In this document: piece by piece, positions 61,479-63,995 of the stretch
Numbering within the stretch: position 1 is the stretch's first letter
Layout of the letters: every line of letters starts with the position of its first letter
DNA from: a virus
IMG/VR virus record: IMGVR_UViG_3300028783_000001
Coordinates: 104,738 to 168,737 of that record
Strand: one strand, 5' to 3'
Length of the DNA: 64,000 nucleotides
Position numbers and translations under genes: made by a program
Notes under the pieces: model-generated
Databases searched by the model: none
What the model was told of the DNA's origin: nothing
Seen by the model: the letters and a program-made list of their open reading frames with translations, nothing else

Positions 61479-62258
61479 TTACGCTCTAATTGGCTGCTGA
61501 GTGAACTGAGACCAGATGCGATTACGCCGCAGATGAACCCCCTTCTCGTCCTCGACGTAGGACAATGTGGGATACCATTCTACCATCTGCTCAGCGGCCG
61601 CGATCATTTTGCTCTGGTCACGGTACATCGTGTAACATCCACCCTGGTTGGTTCCGATAGGTGGGGTATCGACACGCAAATGGTCGAACATTATAGTGCA
61701 CAATCCTTCCGTCAGAACCTGCAACACGAAGTCCAAATCCACTAGATTACCACCAGTGCAGCGGTATCGCGCCTTCACGTCGTTGCGAATTAGCATACAC
61801 TGAACCGGAAAGCTGTTAAACTTCGACGCGTGCTTCGATGGTGGCCAGGAGTTTTGGTTGGTTCCTGACATTCCAATGTTTTTGAAACGCAACGTCTCCT
61901 GTTCTATGGCCCTCAACGCCTTACCAACTGGGACGGTCGTCTGCTTCGTAACTGGAGAGCGATACACAAAGCGTCTTACATCATCGTCCATCTGCCAGTG
62001 GTAATGGTGACCATCCTTACGCGCTAGGTGGTGTATATAACGGCGAACATAGAAGTTGCCACGATCATTGGCTGGCAAGACGATTGCCTTGTCCCCATAG
62101 CGCTGGCGATACACCACGAGATCCTGAGGCTCCACGACCACATTGTAGTCGATTCCAGCCTCGTCTAGCATGTCCGTGGTGCCTCGGGTTATATCCGACC
62201 TACCCTTGGACGGTATGTAGATGGGAAACTCAGGAGTAGTCTTTGACATGATGATCAA
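61479..62258 (-). CDS. TET-associated (TAGT/GREB1-like) glycosyltransferase
   Basis: PIYIPSKGR, VVVEPQD..Y, VRRYI, HWQMDDDV, DLDF..Q.L, GGC motifs. Confidence 0.75.
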   Translation of the reverse strand: MIIMSKTTPEFPIYIPSKGRSDITRGTTDMLDEAGIDYNVVVEPQDLVVYRQRYGDKAIVLPANDRGNFYVRRYIHHLARKDGHHYHWQMDDDVRRFVYRSPVTKQTTVPVGKALRAIEQETLRFKNIGMSGTNQNSWPPSKHASKFNSFPVQCMLIRNDVKARYRCTGGNLVDLDFVLQVLTEGLCTIMFDHLRVDTPPIGTNQGGCYTMYRDQSKMIAAAEQMVEWYPTLSYVEDEKGVHLRRNRIWSQFTQQPIRA

Positions 62259-63466
62259 ATCTCATAGTTTGAGCTGCTACCAGAAACCCAATTCGAAACG
62301 CAAGGAATCTTCGTTAGGTCGACCCTGTCAGCATACTTTCTAGCAATCTCTTGCACTTCGGTTAGCAACCCCTCTTCCAGAGTCGTAGGATTGAGACCTA
62401 GTGCTAGAAACTGCTCGTTGCTTACAGAAAGTTCGTTTTCAGCGGCTTCGTTGCGCGGGTTGTCAACGTGATGCCATGTAGCGCCAGTGAGTTTGGCAAT
62501 GAGCTTGGCCAGATCAATAAGCCTATGCGTTTCCGTCATCTGGTTGATAATCTGAACTCGATCACCCTTAGCCGGTGGGTTTTCCAGCGCCAGCTGGATA
62601 CAGCGTACCGTGTCGTGAATGTGGATGAAGGCTCGCGTCTGGCCACCAGTTCCGTGCACCGTCATTGGGTGGCCGATGGCTGCTTGCATCAAGAATCGAT
62701 TCAGCACCGTACCGTAATCACCATCGTAGTCGAATCGATTCACCAAATCTTCGTGAAGAGCGGTCCGTGAAGTCTGCGTTCCCCAGACGATACCCTGGTG
62801 TAGGTCGGTAATAATTACCTTGTCGTTCTTGTTATAATAGAGGAAGAACAGCTGGTCCTGCGTCTTGGTCATATGATAGACACTGCCAGGGTTTGGCGGA
62901 TAGAGGATATCAAAATTGTGTACGCGTTGATCATCTGCAACGCTCACTTGCAGGTAGCCCTCTGGGATTTTCATACCGGCTGTGCCGTAACCATAGACTC
63001 CCATCGTACCTAAGTGGATGAGGTGGGCGTCACAACCAGTAGCTACCATTGCACACAAAACGTCGTGAGTAGCGCAGAGATTATTGCGCACCGTATAGCG
63101 ACGCTCGGTTGGTGACTTCATCGAATAAGGGGCGGCTCGCTGCTCTGCAAAGTGAATGATCGTCTTAGGGCAAAACTCCGTGAGGAGCTGCGTAAACTTC
63201 GCGAAGTTTTCACCGAGCGCGAGTTTGACAAACTTGATCTGCATACCAGAAATCTTGCGCCAAGTCTCCAGACGCTTTTCAATCGTCGAGATTGGAGTTA
63301 GTGACGAAACTCCCAGGTCAATATCAATCTTGCGGCGCGAAAGGTTGTCGACGATGCACACCTCATAACCTAGATCAGAGAGATGTAGTGCCGTGGGCCA
63401 TCCACAAAAGCCGTCTCCGCCGAGGATCAGGACTCGATGACCATTGCTACGTATTGAACTCATCAC
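62255..63466 (-). CDS. sqdB: UDP-sulfoquinovose synthase
   Basis: GGDGFCGWPTALHLS, HFAEQRAAPYSM, LGTMGVYG, PGSVYHMTK, TDLHQGIVWG, RFDYDGDYGTVLNRF, GGQTRAFIHI. Confidence 0.95.
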   Translation of the reverse strand: MMSSIRSNGHRVLILGGDGFCGWPTALHLSDLGYEVCIVDNLSRRKIDIDLGVSSLTPISTIEKRLETWRKISGMQIKFVKLALGENFAKFTQLLTEFCPKTIIHFAEQRAAPYSMKSPTERRYTVRNNLCATHDVLCAMVATGCDAHLIHLGTMGVYGYGTAGMKIPEGYLQVSVADDQRVHNFDILYPPNPGSVYHMTKTQDQLFFLYYNKNDKVIITDLHQGIVWGTQTSRTALHEDLVNRFDYDGDYGTVLNRFLMQAAIGHPMTVHGTGGQTRAFIHIHDTVRCIQLALENPPAKGDRVQIINQMTETHRLIDLAKLIAKLTGATWHHVDNPRNEAAENELSVSNEQFLALGLNPTTLEEGLLTEVQEIARKYADRVDLTKIPCVSNWVSGSSSNYEI

Positions 63467-63533
63467 ATGCTCCTTAATTGCCGGATCGATCCGGCAAACA
63501 ACACATCTTCAGTAGTTATTTACCCCACTGACT

Positions 63534-63995
63534 CTATCCGGTATAATCATAACGCTCGCGACATACATCAGCAAACCTACAACCATAGACGTGAACGCTA
63601 ACGCCACCAGCGGCCGTAGCCGCACTAATTCGGTGTATATCTCCTATGGATGGGTCCAACCAAACGACCTCGCCCTGATGGAGCAATTCGGCTGGTTCAG
63701 CCATCTCTAGCTTCCCTGATGCACCCATTACAAAATTCTCTGATTGCAGCGTTCCAGAAAATACTCCGAGGACACTCCACGAGCGATGATCATGGATTGG
63801 GGTAGCTTGCCCAGCACCCCAAACAAAGCAGCCGACACAAAACGCACCATCTTCGGCTTCGTATAGAAGCTCACGCCGGTAACCATCGCTTCGCTGTTCG
63901 AGCAACTCTGGAGCAATCCACCCCTCTTCGGCAAGCAGGGGACGCAACAATTCGCCAATTTGCCGACAACGATCTAAATTCCAACTACGAACCAA
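63534..63995 (-). CDS. cysteine dioxygenase-family cupin (start uncertain at the window edge)
   Basis: YRRELL, WGAGQATPIHDH, DIHRI and SVHVYG motifs. Confidence 0.85.
   Translation of the reverse strand: MVRSWNLDRCRQIGELLRPLLAEEGWIAPELLEQRSDGYRRELLYEAEDGAFCVGCFVWGAGQATPIHDHRSWSVLGVFSGTLQSENFVMGASGKLEMAEPAELLHQGEVVWLDPSIGDIHRISAATAAGGVSVHVYGCRFADVCRERYDYTG

Follow-up and report, generated by a model that had tools for sequence, protein, structure and literature searches.

In this study, we show that an uncultured phage carries three adjacent genes encoding a thiol dioxygenase of the cysteine dioxygenase (CDO) family, a UDP-sulfoquinovose synthase homologue (SqdB) and a glycosyltransferase of the TET-associated-glycosyltransferase (TAGT) family, here called TAGTa (Table 1). 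The genes lie at the end of the window analyzed, a 64,000-nucleotide stretch that is the final 64 kb of the linear 168,737-bp IMG/VR virus contig IMGVR_UViG_3300028783_000001. Homology shows that the phage should be able to make UDP-sulfoquinovose, with a TAGT enzyme coupled to SqdB, and it is probable that this sugar nucleotide is indeed made and that TAGTa transfers its sugar. Moreover, we propose with moderate confidence that the phage has a glycosylation system with two arms, of which the three genes form the one for the sulfo-sugar, and that the likeliest target of this system is the phage's own DNA. The original prediction, made from the letters of the window, had described three co-oriented adjacent genes, with the glycosyltransferase abutting or overlapping the sqdB stop, and had suggested that they supply sulfite, build a sulfo-sugar nucleotide and attach the sugar to 5-hydroxymethylcytosine (5hmC) or 5-hydroxymethyluracil (5hmU) in DNA. 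The gene arrangement and the identity of SqdB are borne out here; the acceptor is not.

SqdB aligns over its full length (residues 8-393) with Arabidopsis SQD1 (PDB 1I24; 319 bits, ~50% identity), and its identity to alphaproteobacterial proteins that bear the name UDP-sulfoquinovose synthase is 68-75%. Pfam places it in Epimerase/GDP_Man_Dehyd. The NCBIfam equivalog NF041015 scores 313 bits, under its cut-off of 575, and is still the top family by 265 bits; the low score probably reflects a narrowly trained model and not a different function. The NAD motif GGDGFCGW (residues 16-23), GTMG (153-156) and Y197-H198-M-T-K201 are conserved, the latter two aligning with GTMG and YHLSK of SQD1, whose catalytic residues we take to be Thr145, Tyr182, His183 and Lys186 (SQD1 numbering). 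Full-length homology, the catalytic Thr/Tyr/His/Lys and the NAD-binding motif are common to the phage protein and to SQD1, SqdB and Agl3 of other organisms, and judged by its sequence the phage protein is a genuine UDP-sulfoquinovose synthase homologue of the extended short-chain dehydrogenase/reductase (SDR) fold. It differs from SQD1, SqdB and Agl3 in its setting, in that it has neither a sulfolipid partner (SqdX/SQD2, SqdD) nor an archaeal N-glycan partner and is instead coupled to a TAGT enzyme and a thiol dioxygenase. No SqdB homologue was found at E 1e-20 in 50,697 GenBank phage records. In another viral record, IMGVR_UViG_3300005512_004867 (L006:8372-10630), a phage SqdB homologue of 752 amino acids (aa) is interrupted by an intein of ~350 aa within its catalytic YHLSK motif; it reads ...SIYHL / C...VWCGN / SK..., and splicing would restore Y-H-L-S-K.

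The likely ATG of TAGTa lies 5 nt past the SqdB stop codon, and a longer reading from a TTG would overlap that stop by 4 nt; the gene appears to be translationally coupled to sqdB. Profile and structure both set TAGTa with the TAGT family. The Pfam family TAGT (PF20691) matches with 105.5 bits against a threshold of 27.5 (E 4.7e-30; profile positions 1-202 of 205), PHROG 842, 'beta-glucosyl-HMC-alpha-glucosyltransferase', matches with E 1.8e-28, and the motifs D91-D92-D93 and IPSKGR are present. The AlphaFold model, with a predicted local distance difference test (pLDDT) of 92.8, has a GT-A fold. Its top viral structural matches are TAGT proteins, including a T4-like beta-glucosyl-HMC-alpha-glucosyltransferase (template modeling [TM] scores 0.7-0.84), and its top PDB matches are SpsA, WrtF and TarP, which are GT2-like (TM ~0.5). 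TAGTa is a true member of the TAGT family and is neither a sulfolipid transferase nor GT8-like.

The dioxygenase gene runs past the end of the contig. The full protein has 174 aa, of which 21 N-terminal residues lie past the window and contig end (full open reading frame [ORF] in L007:173-697), and other assemblies of the phage (L007, L014, L017) place its start 63 nt past the window with an AAGGAAG ribosome-binding site ahead. At the contig terminus (window 63990-63995), a one-base deletion relative to three other assemblies (GATAG versus GATCAG) introduces a spurious stop and makes a TTG look like the start of the gene. The match to Pfam CDO_I (PF05995) is marginal (24.5 bits against a cut-off of 23). 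The 3-His metal site H89/H91/H142 and the S154-H156-Y158 motif are intact (full-length numbering), and the cupin fold, the 3-His iron site and the Ser-His-Tyr motif are common to bacterial thiol dioxygenases (6XB9, 4TLF; PMC8050391), with ~45% identity to the 3-mercaptopropionate dioxygenases (3MDOs). Unlike the bacterial CDO and 3MDO enzymes, the phage protein adjoins sqdB and combines a CDO-type R62, at the position of CDO Arg60 and aligned with Gln63 of Av3MDO and Gln62 of Pa3MDO, with a 3MDO-type R167, the equivalent of 3MDO Arg168. An Arg at the rat CDO Arg60 position has been described as the mark of authentic 'Arg-type' cysteine dioxygenases, 3MDOs having Gln there (PMC8050391). Therefore, the original assignment to a CDO-family cupin stands as far as a thiol dioxygenase with an intact site and a CDO-type Arg is concerned, but the nearest relatives are the 3MDOs. 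The enzyme looks active, and its sequence would fit either cysteine or 3-mercaptopropionate as substrate. No CDO was found in six other SqdB-bearing viral records.

A second TAGT gene indicates that TAGTa is not alone. The same phage is present in other public assemblies that overlap both contig ends (a 153,609-bp scaffold and a 224,537-bp contig from ENA, along with contigs from JGI, NCBI and Logan), and their joined coordinates give a circularly permuted genome of ~266,123 bp, of which ~222.5 kb (84%) was read; the completeness of the contig by CheckV is 66%. The ~54 kb past both contig ends were annotated from these assemblies with precomputed Pfam matches. TAGTb (132 bits, TAGT) is the last gene of an operon that includes two DNA methyltransferases, a glucose-1-phosphate cytidylyltransferase (RfbF; 403 bits, above cut-off) and a 261-aa ParB-like protein (PHROG 620, E 2e-17), the N-domain of which has ParB, Noc and KorB as its top structural matches. 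In a Logan contig (L021), the two modules are contiguous, in the order SqdB (82% identity), TAGTa (75%), ParB-like protein (52%) and TAGTb (65%). L048, a 147-kb IMG/VR contig from a distant phage, encodes SqdB (63%), a TAGT, a ParB-like protein, a second TAGT and a homologue of p158, the 158-aa protein that opens the TAGTb operon of the phage studied here. Thus, the synteny of sqdB with a TAGT gene, which the original prediction had pointed to as informative, recurs in two other phage lineages, and the two modules would appear to be one system in these relatives that is here divided between two genome loci. Another relative (L019; TAGTa 68%) has no SqdB directly upstream.

The partnership between TAGT and ParB-like proteins extends well beyond these phages. 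We surveyed 80 IMG/VR loci (L025-L104) with TAGT relatives, 78 of which hold a total of 184 TAGT ORFs, mostly as tandem pairs or triplets. The ParB-like protein ends in a conserved domain of ~70 residues, here called X, which has the motif W-x-G-M-P-E-[FY]...K-T-K-x-[IV]-W-x-P and belongs to no Pfam family. Of the 80 loci, 41 contain this domain, in some cases as a short ORF immediately before a TAGT gene and in others fused to TAGT, and it is also found as the C-terminus of ParB_N proteins. Moreover, by Pfam, three loci (L026, L040, L038) encode natural single-protein fusions of ParB_N, X and TAGT, and such ParB_N-TAGT fusions, as read from the sequences, are direct Rosetta-stone evidence of a ParB/TAGT partnership. 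Sugar-nucleotide enzymes stand beside the TAGTs, namely SDR in 21 loci, UDP-glucose dehydrogenase in 13 and UDP-galactopyranose mutase (GLF) in one family of five, and the TAGT clusters are surrounded by genes for replication (PolB, clamp loader, DnaB) and for packaging (terminase, MuF). TAGTb orthologues with 44-49% identity are present in the cultured phages Aeromonas Aeh1, 65 and phiAS5, Vibrio Kuja, Tenacibaculum PTm1 and Pectobacterium POP12. In four T4-like marine phage contigs (L039, L041, L042, L080), the interval between polB and uvsX, which we take to be the place of gene 42 and beta-gt on the T4 map, holds a TAGT-X-TAGT cluster together with genes for a 308-aa protein, UDP-glucose dehydrogenase and an SDR; no thymidylate-synthase (TS) homologue was found in these four records. 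The proteins conserved beside TAGT elsewhere (fam8 of 308 aa, a 362-aa protein of L015, p147 and p158) had no informative Pfam or PDB match.

It seems that the system could operate as follows. Firstly, the thiol dioxygenase would oxidize cysteine (or 3-mercaptopropionate) to a sulfinate, from which host enzymes, for example aspartate aminotransferase acting on cysteine sulfinate, might release sulfite. Secondly, SqdB, given its strong homology, would form UDP-sulfoquinovose from sulfite and UDP-glucose. Thirdly, TAGTa would transfer sulfoquinovose, a donor suggested by the synteny recurring in three phage lineages, and it would act with the second module, that is, two DNA methyltransferases, a pathway from CDP-glucose to CDP-6-deoxyhexose, the ParB-like protein with its X domain, and TAGTb. 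The likely product would be a mixed decoration of 6-deoxyhexose and sulfoquinovose serving counter-defense, a role that fits because anti-defense genes surround the locus (Acb1, NUDIX-Tad6, NADAR and ADP-ribosyltransferases). It is by operon position only that the dioxygenase is assigned the supply of sulfite. For this step the phage would depend on a transaminase or desulfinase of its host, since aminotransferases (classes I/II, V), desulfinase and PAPS (3'-phosphoadenosine 5'-phosphosulfate) reductase are all absent from the contig, so that of the predicted sulfite supply through CDO the active-looking dioxygenase stands, but the phage has no sulfite-releasing enzyme of its own.

We put the chance that DNA is the target at about even, and four considerations make it the likeliest one. 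The only characterized phage TAGT, the T2/T6 enzyme of PF20691, acts on DNA, where it adds glucose to glucosyl-hmC (PMC13216743). Phage dioxygenases that modify DNA have ParB-like proteins as documented partners, and these ParB-like proteins co-occur with glycosyltransferases (O'Toole et al., 2026, PMC13229309). Two DNA methyltransferases share the operon of TAGTb, and the flanking genes are of the counter-defense kind. The DNA target originally predicted is favored by the link of both TAGTs to genes for ParB-like proteins and DNA methyltransferases, but an acceptor-making enzyme was not found in the ~84% of the genome read. All known DNA glycosylation requires a base hydroxyl made by an enzyme of the TET/JBP, TS-homologue or C5-methyltransferase routes (bioRxiv 10.1101/2023.12.21.572611).

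Several observations weigh against the proposed scheme. The Pfam families TET_JBP, Thymidylat_synt and C5 DNA_methylase have no match on the 168.7-kb contig, and the ~54 kb of extensions contain no TET/JBP, thymidylate-synthase homologue or C5-methyltransferase; the original prediction had proposed to look for such genes beyond the window, and none was found in the ~84% of the genome read. In 50 viral records with the nearest TAGT relatives, six of them at least 90% complete, neither TS nor TET was matched. The TS search is backed by a positive control, as it does find matches in cultured phages; the TET search is without one and carries less weight, and many phage 5mYOXs reportedly escape PF12851 (PMC13229309). 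Given that known DNA glycosylation needs an enzyme-made hydroxyl and none was found, either a new acceptor or a non-DNA target would follow. The absence of sulfite-releasing enzymes from the contig and the closeness of the dioxygenase to 3MDOs (E 4e-25 for 6XB9 to 1e-22 among 6XB9, 4QMA and 3USS, versus ~1e-6 for rat and mammalian CDO) count in the same direction. The SqdB-adjacent TAGTs of this phage and L021 do not form sister clades with those of L048 in a FastTree tree, and a sulfoquinovose-specific TAGT clade was rejected as these TAGTs of the two lineages are not neighbors in it.

The alternative that survives best, which we regard as possible though clearly behind DNA, is glycosylation of virion or other proteins, in which TAGTs or other phage glycosyltransferases would put sulfoquinovose and 6-deoxyhexose on Ser/Thr-rich structural proteins to form an acidic glycan coat. 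GREB1, a eukaryotic TAGT-domain protein, O-glycosylates a protein (PMC7968844). In four other jumbo-phage contigs (L002-L005), SqdB lies in glycan islands of GT2, methyltransferase and sulfotransferase genes with no TAGT above the Pfam cut-off, and in some small phages, such as Vibrio phage 1.076.O, a TAGT gene sits between the portal and head-morphogenesis genes. The three-gene locus itself is upstream of a gene for a 2210-aa protein and the portal gene, and the lack of a hydroxymethyl-base pathway on the contig and in the 50 related records would suit a protein acceptor. However, the pairing and fusion of TAGTs with ParB_N is systematic, the companions of ParB_N domains otherwise being DNA methyltransferases and DNA dioxygenases, and the two DNA methyltransferases of the TAGTb operon, the replication-module contexts of TAGTs and the action on DNA of the only characterized phage member speak against proteins as the target.

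We doubt that the acceptor is hmC or hmU, and we consider improbable the direct placing of sulfoquinovose on 5hmC/5hmU made by a phage TET/JBP enzyme or hydroxymethylase. The TAGT family name and the T-even precedent favor it, as do published clusters of glycosyltransferase and epimerase that act on 5hmC (bioRxiv 10.1101/2023.12.21.572611). Further support comes from the tandem TAGTs of Vibrio phage Kuja, ~6 kb from a thymidylate-synthase homologue, from the ~44 kb (16%) of the genome that lie outside the part read, and from the 5mYOXs that escape PF12851. On the other side, TS, TET and C5-methyltransferase genes are missing from ~222 kb of the ~266-kb genome and from all 50 related records, complete ones included. 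Moreover, the original prediction had assumed that TAGT enzymes act directly on hydroxymethyl-pyrimidines, but the acceptor of the characterized T2/T6 member is a sugar and not hmC, as this enzyme attaches a second sugar where the base already bears glucose. Lastly, an auxiliary metabolic role in the remodeling of host sulfolipid (SQDG) or surface polysaccharide, for example under phosphate limitation, is very unlikely because, even though SqdB is closest to alphaproteobacterial sulfolipid enzymes and extra UDP-sulfoquinovose would be usable by host SqdX or SqdD, the contig has no match to GT4 (PF00534; SqdX/SQD2) or GT8 (PF01501; SqdD), so that the predicted absence of SqdC, SqdD and SqdX from the window extends to all 168.7 kb for GT4 and GT8, while SqdB is translationally coupled to a soluble GT-A enzyme of the TAGT family and the SqdB-TAGT-ParB-TAGT cassette is conserved in phages.

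With DNA as the favored target, the system would belong with the phage hypermodification clusters in which a glycosyltransferase is paired with a partner sugar enzyme. Such pairs put glycans, including hexuronic acid on cytosine, on phage DNA (Pyle et al., 2023, bioRxiv 10.1101/2023.12.21.572611). The pairing of a GT-A enzyme with an SDR-type sugar-nucleotide enzyme, successive glycosyltransferases, and ParB-like and methyltransferase neighbors are common to this phage and to the post-replicative DNA glycan clusters, where anionic sugar products are also known (Pyle et al., 2023, bioRxiv 10.1101/2023.12.21.572611; PMC13229309). In contrast to those clusters, the modules are split across the genome here, the C5-methyltransferase, 5mYOX and TS homologue of the 5hmC/5hmU type were not found in the part read, and the donor would be UDP-sulfoquinovose from a phage SqdB with a thiol dioxygenase upstream, neither of which has been reported for DNA. 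With the T2/T6 beta-glucosyl-HMC-alpha-glucosyltransferase, TAGTa shares PF20691, PHROG 842 and the GT-A fold, although the two are too distant for recovery by tblastn at 1e-5. The T2/T6 enzyme extends an existing glycosylation of DNA by a further sugar, and a scheme of two TAGTs and two sugars would be in keeping with this. However, in the T-even phages gene 42 makes hmC and a GT-B enzyme adds the first glucose, both absent here, and the T2/T6 donor is UDP-glucose. Among the papers searched, none combines sulfoquinovose, bacteriophage and DNA modification, and the key preprint on glycans of phage DNA nowhere mentions sulfo-sugars (Pyle et al., 2023, bioRxiv 10.1101/2023.12.21.572611). The original claim of an undescribed anionic sulfonated-sugar DNA therefore has to be narrowed, since an anionic sugar (hexuronic acid) on phage DNA is already described but a sulfonate would be new.

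Table 1. Features of the phage locus and of its second module (window coordinates unless a genome or assembly position is given)
Feature	Position	Strand	Remarks
CDO-family thiol dioxygenase (cupin)	63534..63995	minus	Pfam CDO_I and solved-structure matches; truncated by contig end
SqdB, UDP-sulfoquinovose synthase homologue	62255..63463	minus	402 aa from likely ATG 63463; ORF 62255..63466
TAGTa, TAGT-family GT-A enzyme	61479..62249	minus	256 aa from likely ATG 62249; ORF 61479..62258
Five co-oriented ORFs (204/150/320/238/212 aa)	58009..61469	minus	Lys/Ala/Pro-rich, basic; several with N-terminal 'Y(L/R)KxHP' motif
TAGTb operon, in order			DNA methyltransferase (PHROG 799), 147-aa protein, N6_N4 DNA methyltransferase, glucose-1-phosphate cytidylyltransferase, SDR, RmlC-type epimerase, second SDR, 261-aa ParB-like protein, TAGTb
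ParB-like protein	genome 25403-26188		261 aa
TAGTb	genome 26193-27131		last gene of operon
Anti-defense island past contig end	L014:1-8184, L023, L024		Acb1, NUDIX-Tad6 fusion, NADAR, two ADP-ribosyltransferase (ADPrib_exo_Tox) proteins
Further genes in island	L014:1-8184, L023, L024		type IB topoisomerase (834 aa), HNH endonuclease, lysozyme

The five ORFs downstream of TAGTa are kept in every assembly of this phage and are missing from the L021 and L048 cassettes. Neither Pfam nor PHROG matched any of them, and as low-complexity basic proteins with no family match they were rejected as pathway enzymes. A paralogous, strongly basic run (56218-61469, minus strand; 150, 320, 238, 212 and 284 aa) directly follows the TAGTa gene and shares the N-terminal 'Y(L/R)KxHP' motif and histone-H1-like KPxK tails; these may be DNA-condensing or internal virion proteins and, should the phage DNA bear additional negative charge, might serve as its counter-ions. 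Genes for the portal and the major head protein fall inside the window, and a portal protein search of IMG/VR gave a single distant relative of this phage. Elsewhere in the genome, a 1150-aa protein before the contig start (L111:2835-6287) has two intein-splicing matches and a LAGLIDADG domain, a DCD-family (dCTP deaminase-like) protein is encoded on the contig (genome 9062-9622), and a 900-aa N6_N4 methyltransferase lies past the contig end (L114:16417-19119).

If sulfoquinovose sits on the DNA of this phage, a strongly acidic, nuclease-blocking sulfonate would join the known DNA hypermodifications, and the phage would be rerouting host cysteine and sulfur metabolism for its sugar supply. In a bolder reading, which we offer as speculative and rather unlikely, ParB-X/TAGT cassettes would glycosylate phage DNA without a hydroxymethyl- or hydroxy-pyrimidine precursor, through a new acceptor chemistry that uses a canonical base or the product of an unrecognized enzyme, and the glycan here would include sulfoquinovose from sulfite liberated by the phage's thiol dioxygenase. 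If true, a sulfonated modification of nucleic acid would be on record for the first time, and DNA glycosylation would have a new route. Whichever target applies, a widespread and uncharacterized ParB_N-X-TAGT module is exposed, often with two or three tandem TAGTs and private sugar-nucleotide enzymes, in phages without known base-hydroxylating enzymes. For these 'solitary TAGT' phages, either an unrecognized acceptor chemistry extends across a large group, or their enzymes do not act on DNA.

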